64,000 bases of DNA, from assembly GCF_964213995.1 (NCBI RefSeq), contig NC_135823.1, forward strand, positions 186,001 through 250,000, in the 5' to 3' direction. The notes beneath the pieces are model-generated. The model searched no databases and was not told the origin of the DNA. It saw nothing but the letters and a program-made list of their open reading frames with translations. The DNA comes from Mustelus asterias (taxonomy: Eukaryota). The translations under genes were made by a program, and so were the position numbers. This document shows, piece by piece, positions 3,781 to 64,000 of the stretch (position 1 is the stretch's first letter; the number at the start of each line of letters is the position of its first letter).

Positions 3781-4627
3781 ATTCAGGTAGGAACATTTAC
3801 GAAGAATTAAGAAAAACAAAATCACCATTAAAATCGTGGTGTGGTGAAAGAGGAATCATTCTCAAGGGCATTGGGAAAAAGCCAAGAGTTTAGACTAAAT
3901 TGATGGTTCCAGCAAATGACACTGGCTTGACGGGCAGAATGGCCTCTTTCTGGGCTGGAAATTGCCACAGTTCTAAGCTTCGAGTCTATAAAATCCATTT
4001 ACCCAGTGTTCAGACGGGAATATGGATTGCAGATAATGTTCTTTCAGGATTAAATATATCAGTGCCCAATACCAGGATACATCCAGTTAAGGCTCGGGAC
4101 ACATTTAATCTTGCAGATTTCATATTCATGCAGCCGAAATCCTGAACCAATTACTAACCTGCCTGGTCAGCCCTTAATCCCATCTCCAACGCACACACAC
4201 ATCCTAAAAATGTCTATGTAAATTAGCTGAAGAGCCACCGGAAACATATTTGTTCTAAACCCTTATAGAAACCGGAATCACACAGCTTACATTTGGTATT
4301 CAAAACCTGTTTCAATATTTAGATAACTCCGGCAAAGATATATTTTGAATTATTTCTTGCACAATTACAGTAGAAAATTCAGAATAGAATTTTAAAAACC
4401 GCTATGAGAAATTAGAAGCAAGGAGAGGTGAAATTGCACTGCCGACGATATTCCGTCATAGGATGGCGGACATTAAGAGAAAATTCATTTTCCGGTTTGG
4501 GCGCCATCATACTATAGAGCCACCAATCCGCCCGAATTTCCACCGGCTGCACTTTCTGAATTTCCCGTGCAACAAGAAGAATGTTTCTAAAGCACTCGAC
4601 ATCCGGTGAGTTCTCTCTCCCCTCGAG

Positions 4628-4672
4628 TTAGAGTTTTGGATCCTCGTTAAAGGCCAGGCGAGCGTAAAGCGT
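4628..4672 (-). CDS. Exon 6 (terminal): TLYARLAFNEDPKL-stop, ITSM/ITIM-like tyrosine motif
   Basis: Acceptor cacttttcatccacag, phase 0 matching exon 5; YxxL motif at the exon start; TAA at 4628-4630. Confidence 0.75.
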   Translation of the reverse strand, partial: TLYARLAFNEDPKL

Positions 4673-7600
4673 CTGTGGATGAAAAGTGATCAGTTAGTGC
4701 AATCCACACCATTATTATAGGGATATGCGAGACCATTGAGTCCCCCACTCCACCCCTCTCCGCACGCCCGCCCCCCCCCCCCCCCCCCGCCGCCTCCGCC
4801 GCCCCGCCACTCTATTCAATCGGTTCATGGCTGGACTGTAGCTCAACTCACAGTCAACCACCAATATTGAATAATCCTTAATCCACTCCCTAATATATAT
4901 CTAACTGTCGCAGTTTTGAGAGTTCCAATTGCCCAATGTTCTATATAGCTTTTTAGTGACCAGAATTCCGCTCCGCGTGCTGTGATGAAGTGTTTTGATT
5001 TTATTTATTATTGTCACATGTATTACTATGCATTGAAAAGTATTGTTTCTTGCCCAGGATACAGACAAAGCATACCGTGTACGGAGGAGGAAAGGAGAGG
5101 GTGCAGATTATAGTGTTACAGTGACAGCTAGGGTGTAGAGAAATTTCAACTTAATATGAGGCAAGTCAATTCTAATGTCTGATGGCAGCAGGGAAGAAGC
5201 TGTTCTTGCGTGGGTTGTACGTGACCTCAGACTGATGTATCTTTTTCCCGAAGGAGGAAGGTGGAAAAGAGTATGTCCAGGGTGCGTGGGGTCCTTGATT
5301 GTGCTGTCTCTTTTTTACATAGAAACGTAGAAGATAGCAGCAGGAAGAGGTCATTTGGCCATTCGAGCCTGCTCCACGACTCATTACGATCATGGCTGAT
5401 CGTGCAGCCCAATAGCCTAATCCTGCTTTCTCCCCATAACCTTCGCCCCCAGGTGCGATATCCAGCCGCCTCTTGAATACATTCAATATTTTGGCATCAA
5501 CTACTTCCTGTGGCAATGAATTCCACAGGTTCACCACTCTTTTGGTGAAGAAATGTCTCCTCATCTCCGTCCTAAACATCCTCCCTGCATCCACCCTGTC
5601 TCGCCCTGTTAGAATTTTATAAGTCTCTATGAAATCCCTCCTCATTCGTCTGAACTCCAGCGAAAACAATCCTAACCTAGTCAATCTCTCCTCATACATC
5701 AGTCCCGCCATTCCCGGAATGAGCCTGGTAAACCTTCCCTCGAGAGCACGAGCATCCTTCCAAAGTGAATACGCCTGGTATGTGTCCTGCTCTGTCCAGG
5801 ACCACAAGAACTGGTCCAATCCCATCTCTCAAACCAGCCTCCCATCTACTGACTCTGTCGGCACTTCCCGCTGTCTCGGAAAAGCAACCAGCATAATTAA
5901 GGACCCGACGCATTCCAGACTTACTCTCTTCCACCTTCTTCCGTCGGGAAAAAGCTACAAAACTTTGAGGTCACCTACCAACCGACTCAAGAACAGCTTC
6001 TTCCCTGCTGCCATCAGACTTTTGAATGGACCTACCTCGCACTAAGTTGATCTTTCTCTACGCCCGAGCTTTGACTATAACACTACATTTTCCACTCTCT
6101 CCTTTCCTTCTCTATGAACGGTATGCCTTCTCTATATAGAGCGCAAGGAACAATACTTTCCACTGTACCCCAATACATATGACAATAATAAATCAAATCA
6201 ATGTACTCTATGAATGGTATGCTTTGTCTGTACAGCGCGCAATAAACAATACCTTTCACTGCATGCTAATGCATGTGACAATAATAAATCAAATCAATGT
6301 ACTCTATGAACGGTATGCTTTGTCTGTATAGCGCGCAATAAACAATACTTTTCACTGTATGCTAATGCTTGTGACAATAATAAATCAAATCAATGTACTC
6401 TATGAACGGTATGCTTTGTCTGTATAGCGCGCAATAAACAATACTTTTCACTGTATGCTAATGCTTGTGACAATAATAAATCAAATCAATGTACTCTATG
6501 AACGGTATGCTTTGTCTGGATAGCGCGCAATAAACAATACTTTTCACTGTATGCTAATGCATGTGACAATAATAAATCAACTCAAATCAAATGTCCCACG
6601 AATGAATTGAACAAAAAATCTAACTTGGAAGAAGTGTCATTCGGCCTGGAAACTTTCTCTGTCCGTGATGCCGCCAGGCTTATTGAGATTATCCAGAACT
6701 TTCTGTGTTGGTTATGAATTGTAAACCGCGGATTAATAGTTAGTGAAATGTATCCGTGTGGTATAGCAACAACAATTCCATTCATTCACCTCTTTATTCT
6801 GTTTGTGTTCTCTGGATTCTGTCAGTTTCTCATCACTGTTCGCGGTTCCTGTGAGAAAGAGTGATTTAAACTGAAATTTAAACTGGCTACATTTCACACC
6901 GAACCCGCTCAGAAGTGTCAATAACTCAGCGATAAATGGGCGGATTGAGAACGCCGCGCAGTAACAGCGTCCTCCAACAATCGCTACCTCTCTGCCGGTT
7001 CCTGCAGATCCTTCTTCCGGCCACAAGGACCAAGCCCAGAAGGAGAAGCGCCGCAGCCGACAAACCCCCGGAAAACAGTAAATGACAGGTGGTCGGGAAG
7101 GGAGAATCTGCAAAAAGAATTAAACTTTCACTCAAAGAAAATCAAGTGTGGAAATAATTAAACAAGCGAAGGAGTTTGCCCAATTTAACTGTCCAATTTG
7201 ACAGGAAAATGGTAAAATGTTTTTGCACACTTTCCCATCATGTAATAGAGTAGCACTTTTACAATAGGACACAAGGCGAGATAGAGAGTAATAGTGACAG
7301 GGAGACTGAGCATTTTTTGAACAGGGCACACAGAGAGATGGAAGGAGAGAGTGAAAGATTCAGGGAGAGAGTAACCATGAAATCCCACAGTGCAGAAGAA
7401 GACCATTCGGGCCATCGCGTCTACACTGACAATAATCCCACCCTCTCCCCGTCACATCACGCATTTACCCTGCTAATCCTCCTGACAGTCGGGTCAATTT
7501 AGCATGGCCAATCAACCTAACCCGCACATCTTTGGACTGTGGGAGGAAACCGGAGCACCCAGAGGAAACCCACGCACTCACGGGGAGAATGTGCAGACTC

Positions 7601-10600
7601 GACACAGACAACCCCCGAGGCCGGAATTGAACCCGGGGCTCTTGGCGCTGTGAGACATCAGTGCGAACAATTGTGCCACCGTGTTGCCCAATCAAGAGAT
7701 TTTTAAAAAGCACTTTTCCAATGGGACACAGGGAGAGGCAGAGAGAGAGAGTGACAGAGGGACTGCGCACTTTTTGAACATAGAGAAAGGAGGAGAGTGT
7801 GAAAGATTCAGGGAAGAGAAAGAACCAAGATGTTACAAAGCCCAGTTTAAACAACAGAGGAATAAAGCACGAAGTGGAATCATAGAGTCATAGAGGCTTA
7901 CAGCATGGAAACAGGCCCTTCAGACCAACTTGTCCATCCCGCCCCTTTTTTAACAACTAAGCTTGTCTAATTTGCCCGTGCTTGGCCCATGTCCCTCTGT
8001 ACCCATCTTACCCATGTAACTGTCTAAACGCTTTTTAAAAGACAAATTTGTACCCGCCTCTACTACTGCCTCTGGCAGCTCGTTCCAGACACTCAACACC
8101 CAGTGTGTGAAAAAATTGTCCCAGATATATTGACAGAATAAATGATTCAAAGATAGAGCAGCAATCTGAGAGAACATCGTTCAAAGATAGAGAGATAGGC
8201 AGAGACGATAACTTATACAGAAGTATTTAGCTCAATTTTCAATAGGGAAAGATTCAGAGAGCTTTTGAGAAAGAGCGAAAAGAAGAGAACAAAATAGATA
8301 TCATTGGAGAGCGATAGGTAGACACTGAGATGAAGCACCATGTAACTCGCACAAAAATAGTAAACATAGAACGCTGGAGAATGGAAGATAAACCAATAAA
8401 TAGAGGGAAAGAGAGAGAGAGAGACAGAGAGAGAGAGGGCGATGAATATCTGAAGTTAGAGTGAGAGTGAAAGAGAGTGACAGACTGACTGAGAAAGCTA
8501 CACCAGGGTATAAATTGAAGATTGATAGAGAGAAAGGGTGGGGGGTAAGTGGGGGGGGGGGGGGGGGGCGTGGGGGGGGGGCGGTGGATGGTGGGGGAGA
8601 GAGATTGTAAACAGGGGAAGATAAACAACTAGACAGATCATAGTATGCCTGCAGAACAGAACAAGGCCTATCGGCCTATCGAGCCTGCACGACAATAGTC
8701 CCACCCAGGTCCCAACAACTTAATCCCAAATGATTACCCTGACACTTAGGGACAATCTACCATGGCCAACGCACCTGGCCTACTCATCTTTGGACACTAA
8801 CGGACAATTTAGCATTGCCAATCCACCTAACTCGCACATCTTTGGACATGAAGGGGCAATTTAGCATGGCCAATCCACCTAACTCGCACATCTTTGGACA
8901 CTAAGGGGCAATTTAGCATGGCCAATCCACTTAACTTGCACATCTTTGGACACTAAAGGGCAATTTGCCACAGCTAATCAAACTAACCTGCACATCTTGG
9001 ACACTAAGGGGCAATTTACCATGGCTGATCTGCCTGACTTACACATCTTTTGACACTAAGGGGCAATTCAGCCTGGCCAATCCAACGAGCCTGCACATTT
9101 GTGGACACAAAGGGGCAATTCAGCATGGCCAATCCAACTAACCTGCTGATTCATGACACTTGGGCTCAATTAACCATGGCCGATCCACCTGGCCTACACA
9201 TCTTTTGACACTAAGGGGCAATTTAGCATGGCCAATCCACCTAATCTGCACATCTTTCGACACTAAGGGTCAATTTAGCACGGCCAATCCACCTAACCTG
9301 CACATCTTTCGACACTGAGGGGCAATTTAGCATGGTCAATCCACCTAACCCACACATTCTTTGGAGTTTGGGAGGAAACAGGAGCACCCGCAGGAAACCC
9401 GGTGTAACTGAATGGGATTGAAGTAGAGAGAGACGAAGGGATGAGATAGAGTACGACACCGGGGATATAATCACACATTTCAATTTTACACACAGGCAGA
9501 TTGGTCCTTGACCTTCAGACATGTAACGGTGTCTTAGCCAGATACAAGAGGTGGGAGAGGGGAAGAGGCCATTCGGCCTATCTCGCCTATTCCGCCATCC
9601 AATAACACCATGGCGAACCGTGTACATAAACTTCACTTTCCCGCCCTTTCTCTTACCCATTAATCTATCCGTTCTGGCGAATGTGTTTCAGTGATTCAAC
9701 ATCCAAGGCTCTCTACGGTAGCGAAGAAGAGTTAAAATATAAGAAAACGAAACTGGGAGGGCTGTGATATGCCAGTGTTGATTTAGATTTCAATGGAGAT
9801 GCCCGCAGAGACATTTGTAATTTACAAAGTTGGACTGCTCTTAGTAAAGTGTCCCGTTAATATTAAATGGATTGAAAAATGGTCATTGTGAATAGCTACC
9901 TCTCTGAGATGAGACACTTTCACTGAGAATACTTTCACTGGAGTTGACCTGAACGGTGCAAGTACAGCGAGCACCGCTTCTCCAAGTTTCCGCCGGGAGG
10001 CTGATGTAACTCCTGACGGTGTAGGTCCCGTCCGGCTCCAGTGTCCCTGAATCGGTCTGTCCCTCGGTATCCCGTCCCGAAACATTCCAGCGGACGGGAA
10101 AGGAATCGGGAGACACGCCTCTGACCAAGCACAACAACGGGACTCTTTCCATGGCGGGAATCTCATCCAGCGGCGGAGTGAGGAGGAATATGGTGGGAGA
10201 ACCCGCTAAATCCGGCAAAACAAAAGGGGAACCCATTGACAAATGGAACAGGCCACATTAATTGCTCTGAGGTCCCACATCAATGTAATAATAATGGAAT
10301 GTACCTGTAATCACTAACTTGGAGCCATTTCCGAATATTTGGGTCATGTTCTGGTAATTGCGGATTGCACAGTAATATATCCCAGAATCATTGATCCGGG
10401 AATCCGCAATGGTTAGTGAATAAATACGCCGTTTTTCAGAAATCTCGCTGGAAAATCTCCCCTCAGCTGGGCTGTTCTGGTACGCTATGTAAATCAAATC
10501 CATGTGGTTTCTCTCCCTCTGTCTGTACCAGAAGACAGAGCCAGCAGCTTGACCCTGGATGCGGCAGCTGAGATTAACAGGACTCCCCGCAAGGAGCGTC

Positions 10601-12773
10601 TGAACCGGCGGAGACTGGGACAAGGTGACCTGAGACATTGTAACTGGGAAAGAGAGAGAAAGAGAGAACAACAGTCACCAGAGGTTACGGAGCATTCCCT
10701 GAAGACAGCCGACTGAAAGCCAATTGGGAGTAAACCTCAAACCAGTCTTCCATCCATTGACACTTCCCGCTGCCTCGGCAAAGCAGCCAGCATAATTAAG
10801 GACCCCACGCACCCCGGACATTCTCCTTCTTCCGTCGGGAAAAAGATAATAAGTCTAAGGTCACGTACCACCCGACACAAAACAACTTCTTCCCTGCTGC
10901 TGTCAGACTTTTGAATGGTCCTACCTCACACAAAATTGATATTTCTGTACACCCTAATTATGATGGTAACACGACATTCTGCACTCCCTCCTTTCCTTCT
11001 CTGTGTACGGTATGCTTAGTCTGTATAGTGCGCAACAAACAATACATTTCACTCTATAATAATACACGTGACAATATTAAATCAAATCAAATGAAATCAC
11101 AAAAATGCCCGATTCAGAAAAAGAAATCGCACCATTAAAATCACTCTGATCATGGTGTTAGTTGCCCCATTTTCCTCCTCCCTTTCGAAAGGTATAATAC
11201 CAGTCCATTCACCAGTAAATCTGGTTTAAACACTGGGGAGGGGGCACATGGAAACCAAGTGATGTTAATCACATAGAGAGGTTCAGTGAAATTACGTTTC
11301 TCAACTATTGCTTACATCGCGTGTCTCTCCTTAAATGAAAGCAAAAGACTGGGGATGCCTGGAACTGAACAAAAAACAGAAGATGCTGGGAAACCTCAGT
11401 GGGGGTACGGGAATTGTGATCAGTGCCGACTCGATCGGCCAAGCGGCCTCCTTGTGCACTGTACAAACTGACTCTATGATTCTCGGTCTGAGAGCATCAG
11501 TGGAGAGAGAATAGACCCGACGTTTCCAGTCTGGATGACTCTCGGTCAGAGCTCCATTGCCTCTCCGCCGATGCTCTCAGAATCCTAGAATGATAGAATC
11601 CCTACAGTGCAGAAAGAGGCCGTTTGGTCCATCGAGTCTGCACCGATCACAATCCCTCCCAGGCCCTATTCCCGCAAACCCATATATTTACACTGCTAAT
11701 CCCCTGATACGAAGGGGCAATTTAGCATGTCCATTCAAACTAACCCGCACATCTTTGGACCGTGGAAGGAAACTGGAGCACCCGGAGGAAACCCACGCAG
11801 ACACGGGGAGAACGTGTAAACTCTGCAGACAGTGGCCCAAGCCGGGAACCCAAGCCTGGCGCTGTGGTGCATCAGTGCGAAGCACTGTGCCGCTGAGATG
11901 TTCCAGTACTTTCTATTTTGCTTCGTTTCTGCTCCTCCTCCGTTGACTGTGGGCGCTAAAGTTTGTTCAACAGTTTATAACTGACTCTGACGTTCCACTT
12001 GAAGTTCGAGCTTTCTCTCCAAAGTGGTCAACATTGTTAATGGAGCCCATTGACATATCATATCTCATGAGAAATGGCAATTCGGATCAATTAAACTCTA
12101 ATCATTGTTATTAATCGACGTTCCATTTTGTCAGTAACATTTGTTTCATTGTTAAGTGAAACTTGCACGCTGAATCACACCTGATAGCACCGCAGAAGAC
12201 GGGGAGAAGGTAGGTGGGGGGGAAGGTGGAGGGTGGGGAAGGGTGGGGGGCGTGGGGGAGTGGGGAGCGTGGGGGGGGGTTGGGGGGGGGGGTGGAGGGG
12301 GGTGCGGGGGAGGAGCGGTGGGGGAAGGGGTGTGGGGGAGGGGGGTGGGAGGTGGGGGGAGGTGGGAGGTGGGGGGACCGTTCGGCCGTTCGAGTCGGTG
12401 TTGAATCTTTGAAAGATTTCGCTAACATTACTGAATTTTCCCTCTTAAATACATATCCAATTCCCCCATTTTGAAAGTTCCAATTGCCGCTTTTGAAAGT
12501 TCCTGTTGAATCTGCTTCCTCCGCCCTTACAGGCAGAGCCTTCCAGATCACAACAACTCAGATGGGTAAAAAAATATAACTCCCCTCATCTCCCTCTCTG
12601 TTACTATTACCAAATTCTTCAATCCATGCTCCGTTGGCTCCAGACACTCGTGCCAACGGAAACAGTTTCTGCCTCTTCGCTCTATCTAAATCCTTCTCCA
12701 CTCTATCTGAATATAATGAGGATATCTCACCCTGAAAGAGATGGAACAGTGCACAGATACCGAGGAAACTCAT
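4628..12773 (-). CDS. Non-rearranging antigen-receptor-like IgSF gene (L-VJ-C1-TM-cyt1-cyt2), 303 aa; join(12731..12773,10305..10643,9900..10205,6988..7107,6790..6848,4628..4672) on minus strand
   Basis: Exons of 43+339+306+120+59+45=912 nt splice in frame with GT-AG introns (phases 1,1,1,1,0). Protein: MSFLGICALFHLFQVTMS QVTLSQSPPVQTLLAGSPVNLSCRIQGQAAGSVFWYRQRERNHMDLIYIAYQNSPAEGRFSSEISEKRRIYSLTIADSRINDSGIYYCAIRNYQNMTQIFGNGSKLVIT AGSPTIFLLTPPLDEIPAMERVPLLCLVRGVSPDSFPVRWNVSGRDTEGQTDSGTLEPDGTYTVRSYISLPAETWRSGARCTCTVQVNSSESILSESVSSQR DSPFPTTCHLLFSGGLSAAALLLLGLVLVAGRRICRNRQR GTANSDEKLTESREHKQNKE TLYARLAFNEDPKL*. Confidence 0.88.
4995..5312 (-). mobile_element. Rex1/Babar-like LINE 3' fragment
   Basis: Reverse complement of the 5880-6200 type sequence. 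Confidence 0.8.
5317..5762 (-). mobile_element. CR1 LINE 3' fragment with internal deletions
   Basis: RFTRLIPGM..YEERL..RRDFIETYKIL..FFTKRVVNLWNSLP. Confidence 0.85.
5810..6592 (+). mobile_element. Rex1/Babar-like LINE 3' end with tandemly amplified tail, in the last intron of the VJ-C1 gene
   Basis: TNRLKNSFFPAAIRLLN followed by the 3' UTR and (aatca)n. Confidence 0.8.
6110..6590 (+). repeat. Tandem array of a 96-bp LINE 3'-terminal unit (~5 copies)
   Basis: atgtactctatgaa recurs at 6201, 6297, 6393 and 6489 (exact 96-bp period). Confidence 0.95.
6790..6848 (-). CDS. Exon 5: cytoplasmic segment (GTANSDEKLTESREHKQNKE)
   Basis: Acceptor ctctttctcacag, donor GAG|gtgaat; phase 1-0; hydrophilic; lies after a 139-nt intron following the TM exon. 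Confidence 0.8.
6988..7107 (-). CDS. Exon 4: stalk with Cys, transmembrane helix and basic stop-transfer segment
   Basis: Acceptor ttctttttgcag, donor AGAG|gtagcg; DSPFPTTCH-LLFSGGLSAAALLLLGLVLVAG-RRICRNRQR; 120 nt, phase 1-1. Confidence 0.88.
8740..9365 (-). repeat. ~52-bp tandem array (~12 copies) expanded inside a V-SINE in the C1-TM intron
   Basis: Unit ggacactaaggggcaatttagcatggccaatccacctaacctgcacatcttt; shorter arrays at ~14850-15220, 22850-23150, 31060-31290, 31790-32000. Confidence 0.92.
9900..10205 (-). CDS. Exon 3: C1-set Ig constant domain
   Basis: Acceptor ttttgccggatttag, donor AGAG|gtagct; motifs PTIFLLTPP, LLCLVRGVSP..VRW, DGTYTVRSYISL, W..G..xTCTV match the Ig/TCR/MHC C1 consensus. 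Confidence 0.93.
10305..10643 (-). CDS. Exon 2: V-set Ig domain with J-like G strand in the same exon (germline-joined VJ)
   Basis: Acceptor tctctctttcccag, donor ACAG|gtacat; motifs LSC, WYRQ, GRFS, YSLTI, DSGIYYC, FGNGSKLVI. Confidence 0.95.
10735..11095 (+). mobile_element. Rex1/Babar-like LINE 3' fragment in the leader-V intron
   Basis: Same family as 5810-6200; aatcaaatcaaa tail. Confidence 0.8.
12200..12378 (+). other. Dense G-tract (G-quadruplex-prone) in the leader-V intron
   Basis: Many consecutive runs of 3 or more G separated by short loops. Confidence 0.8.
12731..12773 (-). CDS. Exon 1: signal peptide (MSFLGICALFHLFQ), split leader completed by VTMS in the V exon
   Basis: ACAATG start (A at -3), hydrophobic codons, donor CAGG|gtgaga, phase 1; this is the typical Ig/TCR split-leader layout. 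Confidence 0.85.
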
Positions 12774-14057
12774 TGTCCTTGCGCCAGACCGTGAGACTCT
12801 GAGCCCCGGATCCGAATCTCACAGAGATCTCACTCTTGTTCTCTCTGTGTGGGGGAGGTGTGAAATATGCGCACTGTGGATATGAATGAAAACACGACTG
12901 GGGTTTGAAAATAGAACCGAGGTAGGGAGCTCTCTGCGGTTTTCCTGTTTACTCTAGGTCCAAGTGCTGGCGTGCATTCGACATGTTCTACAAAACACCT
13001 CAAACATCGACTCACATCAGTTGCACCAGACTTGGAGTGCAGAGCACGGTTCTTCCTAATCTGGTAAGGATTCTCAGGTAGTGGAAAAGGTGCAGTTAAC
13101 ATTTCACAACGAATGATGCCAGAAATGAGTGTGTAACTGTTAGCCTTGAAGTGTTTGGAGGTCTTTTTCTCGAAACAAAATTGAAAATTGAGGGCTGATC
13201 CACCGAAACATTTAGAAATATGAAATGCTTCAACAAGGCAGAAGTAGGATTTCAAAATATTGCAGGATGAGTTCGTCGCCAAGCAGGAATTCAGGACAAA
13301 TTTTATTTTGGAAGAACAAAGAACAAAGAAAATTACAGCACAGGAACAGGCCCTTCGGCCCTCCAAGCCTGCATCGACCATGCTGCCCGACTTAACTAAA
13401 ACCCCTTCCGGGGACCATATCCCTCTATTCCCATTCTATTCATGTATTTGTCAATACGCCCTTAAAAGTCCCTACCGTATCCGCTTCCATTCCCTGCCGC
13501 GGCAACGAGTTCCAGGCACCCACTACTCTCTGTGTAAAAAATCTGTAAGAATGGGCAGAATATAGAATTCGGTCGCATGGGGAATGCTTTTGATTTGATA
13601 TGATTTGATTTGATTTATTCTTGGCACATGGATTGGGATAGAGAGAAAAGTATTATTTCTTGCGCGCTATACAGACAAAGCATTCCGTTCATCGAGAAGG
13701 AAAGGAGAGAGTGCAGAATGTATTGTCACAGTCAGAGCCAGGGTGTGGAGAAAGATCAACTTCGTGCAACGTGGGCTCATTTTTCATTGTATAGTAATAC
13801 ATGTGACAATAATAAATCAAACCAAATCAAATGAAAATGTGACGATTCAAAAAAAAAATCGCACCATTAAAATCTTTCTGATAATGGCGTGGATTGCCCC
13901 ATTTTCCTCCTCACATCCGCTTGAGACGAATGACAAGATGTATTTTAATTGGGCAGCTGGAGAGACACGAAGGAGAGAAAGGAGAAGAAGGATATGTTGA
14001 TGGGGTGATAGAAAGAAGGAATGAGGTACCTCTGGAACATTAACAACAGCTGTGTTG

Positions 14058-19116: not shown

Positions 19117-21212
19117 GACCATAAGACATGGGAGCAGAATTAGGCCACTCGTCCATCGAGTCTGCTCCACCATTCAATCCTGGCTGATACTTTTCTCATC
19201 CCCATTCTCCTGCATTTTGCCCATAACCCCTGATACCCTTATTAATCAAGAACATATCTATCTCTGTCTTAAAGACACTTAGTGACCTGGCTTCCACAGG
19301 CTTCTGTGACGAAGAGTTCCACAGATTCACCACTCTCTGACTGAAGAAATTCCTCCTCATCTCTGTTTTAAAGGTTCGTCCCTTTAGCCTGAGGATATGC
19401 CCTCTGGTTCTAGTTTATCCTACCAGTGGAAATATCCTCTCCACGTCCACTCTATCCAGGCCTCGCAGTATCCTGTAAGTTTCAATAAGACCCCCCCCCC
19501 CCCCATCCTTCTAAACTTCAACGAGTACAGACCCAGAGTCCTCAACCGTTCCTCATATGACAAGCCCTTCATTGCAGGGATCATTCTTGTGACCATCCTC
19601 TGGACTCTTTCCAAGGCCAGCACACCCTTCCCTGGATATGGGGCACAAAACTGCTCACAATTCTCCAAATGCGGTCTGACCAGAGTCTTATACAGCCTCA
19701 GCACTACATACCTGCCCTTGTATTCTTGCCCTCTCGACATGAATGCTAACATTGCATTTGCCTTCCTGACTGCCGACTGAAACTGCAACTTAAGAAAATC
19801 TTGAACAATGAGTCCCAAGTCCCTTTGTGTTTCTGATTTCCGAAGCATTTTTCCATTTAGAAAATAGCCTATGCCTCCATTTCTCCTTCCAAAGTGCATA
19901 ACCTCACACTTTTCCACATTGTATTCCATCTGCCACTTCTTTGCCCACTCTCCTAACCTGCCCAGTTCTTTCTGCAACACCCCTGCTTCCTCAAGACTAC
20001 CTGTCCCTCTACATATCTTTGTATCATTTGGAAACTTAGCAACAGGGCCTTCAGATCCTTCCTCCAAATCGCTAATGTATATTGTGAAAATTTGTGGTCC
20101 CAGCACCGACCCCTGAGGCACACCACTAGTCACCGGCAGCCATCCTGAAAGAGACGCCTTTATCCCTACTCTCTGTCTTCTGTCAGTCAGCCAATCCTCT
20201 ATCCATGCCAGGATCTTACTCTTAACACCATGCGCACTTAACTTATTTAACTGTCTCCTATGCAGCACCTTGTCAAAGGCCCTTTGGAAATCCACTGGTT
20301 TTCCTTTATCTAACTTCCTTGTTACCTCCTCAAAGAACTCTAACAGATTCGTCAGACATAAGCACCCATTGACAAAGCCTTGCTGACTCATTCCTACTTG
20401 ATCATGAACTTCAAAGTACTCTGCAATCTCATCTTTTATAATTGTCTCTATAATCTTGCCAATGACCGAAGCCAGGCTAAGTGACCTATAAATCCCCATC
20501 TGCTGCCTCCGTACCTTCTTAAACAGCGGTGTTACATTCCTACTTTCCAATCCTCTGGTCCTCTCCCTGCCTCCAGTGATTCCTGAAGTTCACCACCATT
20601 GAGTCCACAATTTCCTCAGTTATCTCTTTTAGAACCCTGGGGTGAAGTATATCTGGTCCAGGTGACTTATCCACCTTCAGACCTTTCAGTTTCCCCAGAA
20701 CCTTCTCCTTAGTGATGGCCACCCCACCCATCTGTGCCCCCTGATTCTCCTGGAGCTCTGGCATCCCACTGGTGTCTTCCACCGCGAAGCCTGATGCAAA
20801 GTAACTGTTCAGTTCCTCTGCCTTCGCTTTGTTTCCTATTATTACTTCTCCAGCCTCATTTTCCAGTGGTCCAATGGCTATTTCTGCCTCTCTCTTACCT
20901 TTAATATATTGAAAACATCTGTTCCTATCTTCTTTAATACCACTCGCGAGCTTACACTCATATTTCATCTTCTTATCGCTAATTGTTTTTCTTAGTTGTG
21001 CTCTGCTCGCTTTTAAAGGCTTCCCAATCCTCTGGCTTCCCACTGATCCTTGCCACTTGTAAGCTTTTTATTTTGCTTTTATGCTGTCCTTGACTTCCCT
21101 CGTCAGCCATGGATGCCTCGTCCTCCCCTGAACATGTTTCCTCCTTCTTGGGATGAATTTCATTTGTGCCTCCTGAATAACTCTCAAAAACTCCAGCCAT
21201 TGCTGTTCCAAA
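19117..21212 (-). mobile_element. 5'-truncated, decayed CR1 LINE (RT)
   Basis: ORFs 19420-20550, 20540-21043 and 21068-21523 with KSPGPD, AFDKV, GVPQGSVLGP, RPHLE. Confidence 0.92.
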
Positions 21213-32444: not shown

Positions 32445-35075
32445 TAGAACATAGAACATTGAACATAGAACAGCACAGCACAGAACAGGCCCTTCGGCCC
32501 ACGATGTTGTGCCGAGCTTTATCTGAAACCAAGATCAAGCTATCCCACTCCCTATCATTCTGGTGTGCTCCATGTGCCTATCCAATAACCGCTTAAATGT
32601 TCCTAAAGTGTCTGACTCTACTATCACTGCAGGCAGTCCATTCCACACCCCAACCACTCTCTGCGTAAAGAACCTTCCTCTGATATCCTTCCTATATCTC
32701 CCACCATGAACCCTTTAGTTATGCCCCCTTGTAATAGCTCCATCCACCCGAGGAAATAGTCTGTGCACGTTCACTGTATCTATCCCCTTCATCATTTTAT
32801 AAACCTCTATTAAGTCTCCCCTCAGCCTCCTCCGCTCCAGAGAGAACAGCCCTCGCTCCCTCAACCTTTCCTCATAAGACCTACCCTCCAAACCAGGCAG
32901 CATCCTGGTAAATCTCCTCTGCACTCTTTCCAGCGCTTCCACATCCTTCTTATCGTGAGGTGACCAGAACTGCACACAATATTCCAAATGTGGTCTCACC
33001 AAGGTCCTGTACAGTTGCAGCATAACCCCACGGCTCTTAAACTCCAACCCCCTGTTAATAAAAGCTCACACACTGTAGGCCTTCTTCACAGCTCTATCCA
33101 CTTGAGTGGCAACCTTTAGAGATCTGTGGATATGGACCCCAAGATCTCTCTGATCCTCCACAGTCTTCAGAACCCTACCTTTGACACTGTAATCCACATT
33201 TAAATTAGTCCTACCAAAATGAATCACCTCACATTTATCAGGGTTAAACTCCATTTGCCATTTTTCAGCCCAGCTTTGCATCCTATCTGTGTCTCTTTGC
33301 AGCCTACAACAGCCCTCCACCACATCCACTACTCCATCAATCTTGGTGTCATCAGCAAATTTACTGATCCACCCTTCAGCCCCCTCCTCTAAGTCATTAA
33401 TAAAAATCACAAAGAGCAGAGGACCAAGCACTGATCCTTGTGGCACACCGCTAGCAACCTGCCTCCAGTCCGAAAATTTTCCATCCACCACCACCCTCTG
33501 TCTTCGATCAGATAGCCAATTACCTATCCAATCTGCCAACTTTCCCTCTATCCCACAGCTCCTTACTTTCATCATAAGCTGACCATGGGGACCTTATCAA
33601 ACGCCTTGCTAAAATCCATGTATATGACATCAACTGCCCTGCCTTCATCAACACACTTAGTTACCTCCTCAAATAATTCAATCAAATTTGTGAGGCACGA
33701 CTTGCCCTTCACGAATCAGTGCTGACTATCGCGGATTAATCTGCATCTTTCTAAATGGTCGTAAATTCCATCCTTAAGGATCTTTTCCATCAATTTACCA
33801 ACCATCGAAGTAAGACTAACCGGTCTATAATTACCAGGATCATTTCTATTCCCTTTCTTAAACAGAAGAACAACATTCGCCACTCTGCAGTCCTCTGGGA
33901 CCATCCCCGTGGACAGTGAGGCCCAAAACATCAAAGCCAAAGGCTCTGCAATCTCATTCCTTTCCTCCCAAAGAATCCTAGGATATATTTCATCAGGCCC
34001 AGGGGACTTATCGACCTTCAGTTTATTCAAAACTGCCAGTCCATCCTCCCTCCGCATAACTATTTCCTCCAGCCTATTAGTCTGTCACACCTTCTGTTCC
34101 TCAAAAACATGGTGAACACTGAAGAAAAGTACTCATTCATCACCTCGCCTATCTCCACTGACTCCATACACAAGTTCCCACTTCTGTTCTTGAACGGCCC
34201 TAACCTCACCCTGGTCATTCTTTTATTCCTCACATAAGAGTAAAAAGCCTTGGGGTTTTCCTTGATCCGACCCGCCAAGGACTTCGCATGTCCCCTCCTC
34301 GCACTCCTAAGCCCCTTTTTCAGCTAATTCCTTGCTAACGTGTAACCCTCAATCGAGCCATCTGAACCTTGTTTCCTCATCCCTACATAACCTTCCCTCT
34401 TCCTTTTCACAAGACATTCCACCTCTTTCATGAACCATGGTTCCCTCACTCGGCCATTTCCTCCCTGCGTGACAGGGACATACCTATGAAGGACACCCAA
34501 TATTTGTTCCTTGAAAAAGTTCCACTTTTCATGAGTGCCTTTCCCTGACAGTTTCTGTTCCCATCTTCTGTCCCCTAATTCTTGCCTAATCGCATCATAA
34601 TTACCTCTCCCCCACTTATAAACCTTGCCCTGCCACACGGCCCTATTCCTCTCCATTGCAATAAGAAAAGACACCGAATTGTGGTCACTATCTCCAAAGT
34701 GCTCTCCCACAACCAAATCTAACACTTGGCCCGGTTCATTTCCCAGTACCAAATTCAATGTGGCCTCACCTCTTGTCGGCCTATCCACATATTGTTTCAG
34801 GAAACCCTCCTGCACACACTGCACAAAAGCTGCCCCATCCGAACTATTTTACCTACAAAGGTTCCAATCAATATTTGGAAAGTTAAAGTCCCCCATGACA
34901 ACTACCCTGTGACCACCACACATATCCATAATCTGCTTAGCAATTTCTTCCTCCACATCTCTATATCTATACTTATATCTATAAGTATCTATATCTATAA
35001 TTTCTTCCTCCACATCTCTATATCTATACTTATATCTATAAGTATCTATATCTATAATTTCTTCCTCCACATCTC
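32445..35075 (-). mobile_element. 5'-truncated CR1 LINE (end of APE domain, RT, 3' tail)
   Basis: ORF fragments with GDFNFP, KSPGPD, NYRPVSLT, GVPQGSVLGP, FADD, RPHLEYC; gaacata-type repeat tail at ~32445. Confidence 0.93.
34942..35075. repeat. 57-bp tandem repeat (about 2.3 copies) at the 5' truncation point of a CR1
   Basis: aatttcttcctccacatctc occurs three times, separated by identical AT-rich spacers. Confidence 0.9.
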
Positions 35076-60454: not shown

Positions 60455-60981
60455 AGGAGCGTTCTTTGGAACAATATGTAGATAGCCCGACTAGAGAGCG
60501 GGCTAGACTGGACCTCGTACTGGGGAATGAGCCCGGTCAGGTCTTCAACGTTTCGGTAGGGGAACATGTGGCAAATGGTGACCACAATTCTGTTAGCTTT
60601 AGGATAGTGATGGAAAAGGATGAGTGGTGTCCCAAGGGTAAGGTGTTGGATTGGGGGAAGGTTAACTTTAGTGGGATTAGGCAGAAATTGGCAGCTCTTG
60701 ATTGGGAGAGGCTGTTTGAGGGTAAATCCACATCTGGCATGTGGGAGTCTTTGAAGGAACAGTTGTAAGGGCTACAGGACAGGCATATGCCTGTTAAAAA
60801 GGATAGGAAGGGTAGGATTCCAGAACCGTGGATAACCAGGGAAATTGAGGGACTGGTCAAAAAGAAAAGAGAGGCGTATGGTAGGTCCAGGCAGCTAAAA
60901 ACGGAGGGAGCTCTGGAGGAGTACAAAGAAAGTAGGAAATAAATCAAATGGGGAATTAGAAGAGCAAAAAGGGGTCACGAA

Positions 60982-62571
60982 ATGTTCTTTGCAGACAGGA
61001 TTAAGGAGAATCCCAAGGCATTTTATTCATACGTTAGGAACAAAAGGGTTGTCAGGGAAAAAATCGGACCTCTCAGGGACAAAAGTGGGGAATTATGCTT
61101 GGAGCCCAAAGAAGTAGGGGAGATCCTAAATGAATACTTTGCGTCGGTATTCACAAAGGAGAGGGATGTGTTGACTGGGAATGTCTCGGAGGGGAGAGTT
61201 GAACCGTTGGAGAAAATCTCCATTACAAAGGAGGAAGTGTTAGGTTTGTTAGAGAATTTAAAGACTGACAAATCCCCAGGGCCTGATGGAATCTATCCAA
61301 GGCTGCTCAGGGAGACGAGAGATGAAATCGCTGGGCCTCTGATGCAAATCTTTGTCTCGTCACTGGACGCAGGTGAGGTCCCAGAGGATTGGAGGATAGC
61401 TAATGTGGTCCCGTTATTTAAGAAGGGTAGGAAGGATAACCCGGGTAATTATAGGCCGCTGAGCTTGATGTCCGTGGTGGGGAAGTTGTTGGAGAAGATT
61501 CTTAGAGATAGGATGTATGAGCATTTAGAAAGGAATAAACTCATTAACGATAGTCAGCATGGTTTTGTGAGAGGGAGGTCATGCCTCACTAACCTGGTGG
61601 AGTTTTTTGAAGAAGTGACAAAAATGGTTGACGAGGGAAGGGCCGTGGATGTTGTCTATATGGACTTTAGTAAAGCGTTTGACAAAGTCCCTCATGGCAG
61701 GCTGGTGAAAAAGGTTGGATCCCATGGGATAAAGGGGGAGGTGGCTAGATGGGTGGAGAACTGGCTTGGTCACAGAAGACAGAGTGTGGAGGTGGAAGGG
61801 TCTTTTTCCGGCTGGAGGCCTGTGACGAGTGGTGTTCCGCAGGGCTCTGTATTGGGACCTCTGCTGTTCGTGATTTATATGAATGATCTGGAAGAAGGTG
61901 TAACTGGGGTGATCAGTAAGTTTGCGGATGGCACAAAATTGGCAGGACTTGCAGATAGTGAGGAGCATTGTCAGAAGCTACAGAAGGATATAGATAGGCT
62001 GAAAATTTGGGCAAAGAAATGGCAGATGGAGTTCAATCCTGATAAATGCGAAGTGATGCATTTTGGTAGAAATGATGGAGGGAGGAGCTATATGATAAAT
62101 GGCAGAACCAGAAAGGGTGTAGATACGCAGAGGGACCTGGGTGTGCAAGTCCACAGATCCTTGAAAGTGACGTCACAGGTGGAGAAGGTGGTGAAGAAGG
62201 CATATGGCATGCTTGCCTTTATAGGACGGGGCATAGAGTATAAAAGTTGGGGTCTGATGTTGCAGATGGATAGAACGTTGGTTCGGCCGCATCTGGAATA
62301 CTGCATCCAGTTCTGGTCGCCACACTACCAGAAGGACGTGGAGGCTTTGGTGAGAGTACAGAGGAGGTTTACCAGGATGTTACCTGCTATGGAGGGGCTT
62401 AGTTATGAGGAGAGATTTAGTAAACTGGGGTTGTTCTCCCTGGAAAGACGGAGGATGAGTGGAGACTTAATAGAGGTGTATAAAATTATGAAAGGCATAG
62501 ATAGGGTGAACGGTGGGAAGCTTTTCCCCAGGTCGGTGGTGACGTTCACGAGGGTAATAGGTTCAAGGTGA
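60982..62571 (+). pseudogene. CR1 ORF2 reverse-transcriptase portion (529-aa open remnant)
   Basis: All RT motifs are present but catalytic FADD reads FADG; upstream ORF2 is broken by a SINE and stops; 3' frameshift. Confidence 0.9.
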
Positions 62572-64000
62572 AGGGGGGGAGGTTTAACACAGGTATCAGA
62601 CGGACATATTTTACACAGAGGGTGGTGGGGGCCTGGAATGCGCTGCCAGGCAAGGTGGTGGAGGCGGACACACTGGGAACGTTTAAGACTTATCTAGACA
62701 GCCATATGAACGGAGTGGAAATGGAGGGATACAAAAGAATGGTCTAGTTTGGACCAGGGAGCGGCGCGGGCTTGGAGGTTCGAAGGGCCTGTTCCTTTGC
62801 TGTATTGTTCTTTGTTCTTGTTGAGTCAGACACGTCCCCCAAGCAAGCCAACGTCGCTTGAAAATTAACACTTATCTCCTTGCTCCCTCTCCAATGCCTT
62901 GCCGCCTGTTCCTCGCTTATCAAGAGTTACACCAAACCCCGGTGACCTCTGGCAGCGATGTGACTGGATATCACTTGGCCACTGGATCTGCGGTCGGGTT
63001 TGACTCCCGGTTTGTGTCACTGCCTGTACAGAGTTTGTACGTTTTCCTCGTGCGTCCGTTTCCTCCGGGACCTCCGGTTTCTTCCCACAGTCCGAAAGAC
63101 GTGCTGGTTAGGTGCCTTGAGTATGCTAAATTCACCCTCAGTGTACCCGAACAGGCGTTGGAGTGTGGCAACTGTGGGATTTTCAAATAATTTCATTGCA
63201 GTGTTAATATAAGTCTACTTGTGACTAATAAACAATCAACTTAAATAAATGAATAAACTAATGACATTCCAGTTAAAGTATTGGCATCATCATTGGGTTT
63301 CCGCCTGCTTTGTGTCAGAACCCAGGAGCGGTGGGAAAGGCATTTCCGGTTTATCCTGATAACTCTTACGCCCGTCGCGAATCCCTTGTTTCCGCCGACG
63401 CCCCATTCACCAGCGCAGCGGGATTCCCGCCGGTCGCCTGAAGATGTCAGAGAGTCGCCCCCTTCTGCTCAGGCAGAGAAATCCACCAGTCACATAATCG
63501 CACAGGATTCATATTGGTAATTAAAACAGATTTCAGTTCCACTCAGATTATGTTTAAGCATAACAATTATTGGTCAATGGAAACATTTGGTGCAGTGTTA
63601 GAATCGAAGAATGATTTATTTTGCTTACATAAAGGAATCTTAAAACAAATAACAATCCCGTCATTAACTGGAGTTACAGAATCCGTATTGAAAGCTGAGG
63701 TACAAAAACAAGGAAGGCCCCAGTGTGTCATTTCACACTTGAATGACCTTACTATAGTAGAATATCTTTCACAATGCTGAAGAAAACTCGCTACACATTT
63801 GATAAAATGAGCCAGTCTTTCTAATCTGCGGCCAGTATGCGGGAAAAGTTAAGCTGTTTGAGGGGAATGTACTTGCTCCCATGTTGAATTCCACAGAGCA
63901 GAGCATACATTGGTAATTCCAGTCTCCTGCGTCATACATCACAGACAAAATTCCCCGATTCTCATTTCCGGTTCTTCTTTTTTGACCTTATTTCCAATGC

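Follow-up and report, generated by a model that had tools for sequence, protein, structure and literature searches.

The window analyzed here, the 64,000-nucleotide stretch C23:186001-250000 of a 3.68-Gb shark genome, carries on its minus strand, from 12773 to 4628, a gene of six exons whose joined frame of 912 bases encodes 303 residues and ends in a single stop. The encoded order is leader, germline-joined VJ, C1, stalk Cys, uncharged transmembrane (TM) segment, and a 43-residue tail with one Tyr. This gene, referred to below as the A gene, is a spliced, non-rearranging VJ-C1 membrane chain fixed in the genome, and its sequence features make it probable that the product is an inhibitory receptor chain acting through recruitment of SHP-2 (or SHP-1). 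An earlier note on this DNA had suggested that it may be an adaptor-independent inhibitory or switch receptor; as detailed below, that interpretation is partly supported.

Structure and splicing of the A gene

The exons are listed in Table 1. All introns are GT-AG, with phases 1/1/1/1/0. The joints 4672/6790, 6847/6987, 7107/9900, and 10205/10305 appear in spliced form in the contigs of X1, X3, and X6 (2 studies), out of four public runs compared, although these runs are not recorded as RNA and the spliced contigs could stem from near-identical paralogues. The 6790/4672 junction, which had been singled out for confirmation, is therefore joined in X1, X3, and X6 under the same proviso. The contigs of run X8 lacked all four joints and read through the introns. 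The leader junction lies outside the stretch covered by run contigs, and the junction evidence consists of the four downstream joints.

Table 1. Positions of the A gene exons and of the neighboring B-chain gene in the window
Feature	Position	Strand	Evidence
Leader exon, ATG to phase-1 GT donor	12731..12773	-	Residues 1-18 of paralogue model P0006 matched by tblastn; frame joins without stop
VJ exon, joined in the germline: V-set domain, J motif FGNG, FR2 W+9 Met	10305..10643	-	Pfam V-set E 2.3e-15
C1-set exon	9900..10205	-	Pfam C1-set E 8.5e-11; joints 10205/10305 and 7107/9900
Stalk and TM exon: Cys237 (7085-7087), uncharged TM (7016-7081), basic stop-transfer residues	6988..7107	-	
First tail exon, 59 bases, phase 1 to 0	6790..6848	-	Joints in run contigs
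Last coding exon TLYARLAFNEDPKL-stop, Tyr292 codon 4664-4666	4628..4672	-	Joint 4672/6790 in X1, X3, X6
Neighboring B-chain gene, 3' end of last exon	63962..64000	-	tblastn of P0016; PLYASL motif just beyond the window

A scan of 4001-13500 found no RSS-like site, and the reading as a rearranged TCR or Ig gene was rejected on that ground. A rearranging TCR chain would have V and J split with RSS and a charged TM segment, and the A gene has neither. Skipping of the exon at 6790-6848 would shift the frame, remove the Tyr, and leave an 8-residue Tyr-less end; no joint of this kind was among those listed for the run contigs. As a separate observation, a RefSeq isoform of the copy at C23:703 kb (P0005) leaves out the first tail exon and has no Tyr. 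The C1 domain at 9900-10205 also gave a weak Pfam match to pre-TCR-alpha (E 0.039, below the cutoff).

Elsewhere in the window, long reverse-transcriptase-like frames at 60943-62571 (+), 19420-20589 (-), and 33066-33593 (-) are, by motif pattern, presumably of LINE type. Head-to-tail repeats were seen by eye in introns at about 6200-6600 (about 95 bases) and about 8700-9400 (about 60 bases). The flanks hold a retroviral env-like frame (L074:2-949, +; Pfam TLV_coat E 1e-7) and a rhodopsin-family GPCR fragment (L043:8996-9517, +). No informative gene was found in 400 kb of flank, where 15 of 508 candidate frames were scanned.

Cluster organization and possible pairing of A and B chains

Relatives of the A gene V exon number at least 22 on C23 (21 at 0.08-1.65 Mb and one at 3.23 Mb), with one more on C73, as counted with 150 of 1506 candidates scored. 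RefSeq models labelled Mustelus asterias match these paralogous copies. Interleaved with the A copies are 22-24 loci of a second VJ-C1 family, B, whose C1 is about 44% identical. Around the window, A and B form tandem units of about 105 kb, and at several places, including 3.23/3.27 Mb, they stand head to head. The total of A and B loci in the genome is about 45, in a birth-and-death pattern. Off C23, A and B copies lie at C73:1.89 Mb and 4.12 Mb (L009 and L008) and on C3499 and C5131. Over 7 kb, the B copy on C73 shares about 91% identity with the 3.27-Mb copy, reflecting either a duplication or an alternative haplotype. Another cluster of C1 exons, at C13:60.0-61.4 Mb, has 32-39% identity and full-length VJ-like matches.

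Several features are consistent with a dimer of A and B chains. The stalk Cys is invariant in 10/10 A and B rows, and Cys237 in 13/13 A rows from shark to bird. Position W+9 of FR2 is L or M in 25 of 28 A rows (3 rows having been dropped as misaligned); in B it is P in 19 of 26 rows. A contrast at this interface position is the rule for heavy and light chains, and the same complement was seen in antibody rows. A complex model of the paralogue ectodomains P0006 and P0016, used in place of the window's own protein, scored 0.36 against 0.00 for the best control, a weak pass. In calibration, 51 of 78 solved pairs reached the mark, as did 2 of 108 mismatched ones; passes at 0.60 or below comprised 5 of the 78 solved pairs and all 4 mismatch passes, and the score may reflect the model's memory of Fab and TCR structures. 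The runs for this pair agreed in at least 78% of contacts, with a partner pLDDT of at least 76. A-B pairing is about as likely as not, with the B chain the likelier partner of A; otherwise the partner would be a second A chain.

Copies with a transmembrane Arg

An Arg 6-9 residues past the stalk Cys was present in 3 of 18 elasmobranch B models, all three without the Tyr, which 14 of the 15 others have (Fisher p 0.005 for the association of Arg with Tyr loss, over rows that are not independent). In this genome, an Arg at +8 occurs in three of the 22 B TM exons that could be read, two of these three copies having stops in V. The B copy at C23:901-909 kb (L087), in which V and C1 are open, the TM has an Arg at Cys+8, and stops interrupt both the tail and the Tyr codon, is by its sequence a candidate activating chain. 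The nearest B genes, at 147, 260, and 361 kb, have an uncharged TM and the Tyr.

Among A-type TM exons, 9/21 have a charge or a frameshift, all in copies broken elsewhere. Five A copies have a TM Arg at +6 or +7, in three of them through a change of TCC GGG to TCC AGG at a CpG site; such an Arg can be neutral decay. The A copy at C23:1,451 kb has open V and C1 and a TM Arg at +6, and it has lost the acceptor of the first tail exon, so that a short Tyr-less tail is predicted. Its V differs at 3 of 112 residues from that of the 1,401-kb A copy, which has an uncharged TM and SVYARL, and the two (L020 and L032) are a candidate inhibitory/activating pair. The genome also holds two TM exons of the zeta/FcR-gamma type.

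The A/B cluster thus looks like a set of paired receptors, and since a few copies combine a TM Arg with loss of the Tyr, it would not be wholly adaptor-independent. The adaptor independence proposed earlier stands for the A chain itself but not for the cluster, with its second chain type and its Arg-bearing, Tyr-less copies. In the known KIR, LILR, and CHIR families, inhibitory forms likewise have an uncharged TM, sister forms have an Arg and a short tail, and duplication is clustered. Those receptors differ from A/B in being monomers with C2-type ectodomains and two Tyr motifs per inhibitory chain.

The same copies bear on the possibility that the partner sets the outcome, the A chain inhibiting with a Tyr-bearing B chain and activating with an Arg-bearing B chain that couples to FcR-gamma or zeta. 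The linkage of Arg with Tyr loss in B models, the open 901-kb copy, and the two zeta/gamma-family exons would suit this proposal. Nevertheless, we consider it unlikely, given the stops in V of two of the three Arg-bearing B copies, the uncharged, Tyr-bearing state of the nearest B genes, and the dependence of the proposal on a putative A-B pairing.

The tail tyrosine motif

The proposed inhibition by the A chain through SHP-2 or SHP-1 would draw on the TM segment and the tail. The TM segment (residues 239-260) is LLFSGGLSAAALLLLGLVLVAG, with no K, R, D, or E, and the only Tyr of the 43-residue tail is residue 292, within TLYARLAF. The earlier note had described an uncharged TM, which holds and is also conserved in orthologues. 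It had also placed the sole tail Tyr in ETLYARL, correctly, but had put the motif wholly at the start of the terminal exon; the E is in fact the last codon of 6848-6790, and the T opens the last exon.

When the tail was shuffled 100,000 times, [STIVL]xYxx[ILV] arose in 2.3% and TxYAx[ILV] in 0.07% of cases. Conservation across vertebrates is stronger evidence for the motif than this shuffling test. The Tyr, whose conservation in orthologues had been named as a check, is kept in the form T-x-Y-A-x-(L/V) from sharks to birds. In 22 taxa, each represented by one hand-picked full-tailed protein found with a search pattern that itself restricted +1 and +3, T was at -2 in 17/22, A was at +1 in 22/22, and +3 was L (14) or V (8). 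In elasmobranchs +3 was L in 9/9 and -1 was hydrophobic (L/I/M/V) in 7/9; in bony vertebrates -1 was E or D in 11/13. B tails conserve an ITIM-type Y-x-x-L-(D/E)-(F/L) instead. With one B protein per taxon (n=12), I/L/V/S was at -2 in 9/12 (P in 3 sharks), L at +3 in 11, D or E at +4 in 10/12, and F or L at +5 in 12/12.

Within this genome, all seven A copies in which V, C1, TM, and both tail exons are open (their leaders being outside that count) are uncharged in the TM and keep the Tyr. Of 24 A last exons, 19 have the Tyr, preceded at -2 by T in 12, by S in 4, and by another residue in 3; S replaces T in two intact paralogues. Elasmobranch A models have no interior TM charge (0/17) and nearly all have the motif (16/17). 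A TM was detectable in 74 of 120 A-lineage rows, the remaining 46 being partial or under the TM threshold; two have a Glu at the outer edge and none an interior Lys or Arg.

In the available text of PMC12151841, an ITIM is defined as S/I/V/L-x-Y-x-x-I/V/L and an ITSM as T-x-Y-x-x-V/I. Strictly, the A gene has neither: its -2 residue is T rather than S/I/V/L (the SVYARL paralogues do have an ITIM residue there), and its +3 residue is L rather than the V/I present in 8/22 orthologues. The suggestion that the motif is a special hybrid of the two types is not supported, because both L and V occur at +3 all through the A lineage: among 60 motif matches in 120 rows scanned, 28 were TxYxxL, 27 were TxYxxV, and 5 were others. 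The S at -2 in 4 of the 19 Tyr-bearing last exons of this genome speaks against it as well. As judged from these alignments, TxYxxL is a normal state of an ITSM-type lineage, not a one-off hybrid.

According to peptide-library data in the available text of PMC12151841, the C-SH2 domain of SHP-2 favors T/V/I at -2 and A at +1, takes I in preference to V or L at +3, and favors an aromatic residue at +4/+5; TLYARLAF is a good fit except at +3. The earlier idea of an inhibitory-type chain with an antigen-receptor ectodomain is upheld in that the Tyr is conserved, the TM is uncharged, and T(-2), A(+1), L(+3), and F(+5) fit published SHP-2 SH2 preferences. In the mechanism that we propose, the chain would form a disulfide-linked dimer through Cys237, the V loops would contact a ligand that drives clustering, a Src-family kinase would phosphorylate Tyr292, and phospho-Tyr292 would dock the C-SH2 domain, recruiting SHP-2 or SHP-1 and causing inhibition.

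KIR2DL5 shares the TxYxxL motif, and in the available text of PMC3443818 this motif does not recruit SAP and is dispensable for inhibition, for which the canonical ITIM is essential. By analogy, a lone TxYxxL might be weak and might need a second motif, since that of KIR2DL5 is reported to be dispensable. The lack of SAP recruitment also makes a switch role for the A chain unlikely, and the SAP-dependent switch put forward by the earlier note is not supported. Such a SLAM-type receptor, in which SAP or EAT-2 would bind the A motif and turn inhibition into activation, would be compatible with the T at -2 in 17/22 taxa and with the hydrophobic -1 of 7/9 elasmobranchs, a residue that SAP needs according to the available text of PMC12151841. 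It is nevertheless improbable in view not only of KIR2DL5 but also of the L at +3 in 9/9 elasmobranchs, the S for T at -2 in two intact paralogues, and the E or D at -1 in 11/13 bony vertebrates, a feature argued in the same available text (PMC12151841) to exclude a PD-1 switch.

Distribution and age of the family

A joint A+B profile found full-length VJ-C1-TM-Tyr proteins in sharks, rays, sturgeon, paddlefish, eel, and lungfish and, among tetrapods, in caecilian, newt, Xenopus, turtles, alligator, and lizards. The A profile additionally reaches birds, where the nearest models are from turkey, ptarmigan, and duck. In a quick maximum-likelihood tree of 54 rows, clade A (SH-aLRT 99) and clade B (94) each extend from elasmobranchs to tetrapods, and FastTree agrees on the A/B split, both trees being without TCR or Ig outgroups. 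By these trees and profiles, A and B are two ancient lineages, and both reach from sharks to tetrapods. The longest contig has the same length for A and B models in Cetorhinus, Heterodontus, Polyodon, Rhinatrema, Chelydra, and Alligator sinensis, while in Scyliorhinus canicula the models found are on contigs of unequal length. Apart from A and B, a third group of VJ-C1-TM rows (18/54; e.g., P0082, P0143, P0096, and P0083) includes sturgeon and eel. Elasmobranch B chains have a degenerate J motif (LQNG-like versus FGNG in turtle and alligator) and an extra Cys pair in V.

The databases misname genes of this family as Ig chains, TCR chains, or PD-1. In public records a caecilian A member bears the automatic name PD-1, and an alligator member is entered as "immune-type receptor"; P0084, P0301, and P0243 are family members auto-named PD-1, TYRO3-like, or Rho GDI.

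Relation to known receptors

PRARP1/PRARP2 (reportedly described by Fu et al. in 2019) and Xenopus VJC1 (reportedly by Ohta et al. in 2019) are said to be non-rearranging, with a joined VJ, and to be V-C1 outside birds. PRARP1 and PRARP2 are said to be a gene pair with one ITIM or ITSM per chain that form disulfide homo- or heterodimers and have a degenerate C1 in birds. The genes studied here are alike in many respects: a single-exon V with a J-like G strand and no RSS, a V-C1-TM layout, two linked paralogous chains with one Tyr motif each, and homologues in bony fish, amphibians, reptiles, and birds. A Pfam C1 call was present in shark and turtle and absent in 4/4 birds and one alligator protein scanned. 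One of the two PRARP chains probably has its shark orthologue in the A gene, and the inhibitory reading has probably been stated already for the chicken family. No profile match was named PRARP, and no chicken protein stood among the matches listed. The shark family differs in being a cluster of about 45 loci in a cartilaginous fish, with Arg-bearing, Tyr-less copies. It may also differ in location: PRARP is named among the VJ genes of the MHC in the available text of PMC10751288, whereas the shark cluster is not on the MHC class I contig. All 140 of 140 MHC-I matches were on C8; PBX, nicastrin, and S100 were not on C23, and several were on small unplaced contigs. No account of the shark A/B cluster was found in a literature search that excluded subscription papers, supplements, and Fu 2019, Ohta 2019, and Flajnik 2023, which possibly name shark members.

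The leader-V-C1-stalk Cys-TM order and the FGxG motif are shared with TCR alpha, beta, gamma, and delta chains, and the best V sequence matches include many TCR-alpha chains. In contrast to TCR chains, the A gene has no rearrangement, no Lys or Arg in the TM, and its own 43-residue tail with a phosphotyrosine motif. The best 60 solved structures listed were all antibodies or TCRs, with no family relative among them. Shark UrIg and UrIg2 also have a non-rearranging single-exon VJ followed by C1; in the available text of PMC12227049, UrIg is secreted with three C1 domains, UrIg2 has nine, and ITIM, ITSM, and tyrosine go unmentioned. The A gene has one C1 and its own cluster, and identity with UrIg2 was ruled out by the number of C1 domains.

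A SIRP-, NITR-, or PD-1-like receptor might instead have converged on an antigen-receptor shape without kinship to PRARP. An uncharged TM with a phosphotyrosine tail and paired forms are generic, and the database names of the caecilian and alligator members point the same way. SIRP is V-C1-C1 with several Tyr, NITR is V or V-I, and PD-1 has one V and two Tyr, whereas the A gene combines V, an FGxG J motif, one C1, and a single Tyr. The full-length profile moreover gave two coherent lineages with the distribution known for PRARP, and 4/4 birds lack the Pfam C1 call, so that we regard convergence as very improbable.

Selection and decay of copies

V frameworks (dN/dS 0.43) and C1 (0.61) are under purifying selection. 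Positive selection on the V loops is not shown, because the pN-pS bootstrap interval (-0.08 to 0.13) spans zero; dN/dS was 1.12 over 9 copies. About two-thirds of A copies are broken. That the Tyr motif is mainly a YxxL sorting or endocytosis signal, or that this copy is a silent recent duplicate, would accord with the match of YARL to Yxx-hydrophobic, with the many broken copies, and with reads that are not assignable to this exact copy, but is scarcely credible when the frame is intact, C1 and the V frameworks are constrained, and conservation at -2, +1, and +5 tracks SH2 preferences rather than a minimal sorting signal.

Significance of a possible two-chain germline receptor

For the A chain as a probable inhibitory receptor chain, the tail motif itself is ordinary, and the interest lies in the family context. 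SHP activation involves engagement of both tandem SH2 domains, so that with one Tyr per chain, two chains would be required to fill them. Two-site models of tandem SH2 engagement are quoted in the available text of PMC12151841. Judged against that text, the A motif resembles the ITSM of PD-1 (T-x-Y-A-x-hydrophobic-x-F/Y) and the B motif its ITIM (hydrophobic-x-Y-x-x-L-D/E-F), but PD-1 has both on one single-V chain, whereas A and B are two separate V-C1 chains (PMC12151841). If A and B do pair, the heterodimer would split a PD-1-like ITSM and ITIM over its two chains.

What this analysis adds is the two-chain, paired, multigene setting in a shark. We tentatively raise the possibility that A/B is a germline TCR-shaped heterodimer predating the shark/bony-fish split, in which the ITSM-type Tyr of A and the ITIM-type Tyr of B would jointly fill the SH2 domains of SHP-2, that the approximately 45 shark loci would form a RAG-free combinatorial repertoire of inhibitory and activating receptors, and that the family may be a living model of a two-chain TCR/Ig precursor. 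The shark candidates for pre-RAG receptors so far, namely NKp30, UrIg, and UrIg2, are all of a single-chain kind. With a two-chain VJ-C1 receptor that has inhibitory tails of its own, occurs from sharks to birds, and has expanded into paired forms, it becomes testable whether heavy/light-style pairing preceded rearrangement and whether the precursor used phosphatase motifs of its own for signalling before it coupled to CD3 or CD79.
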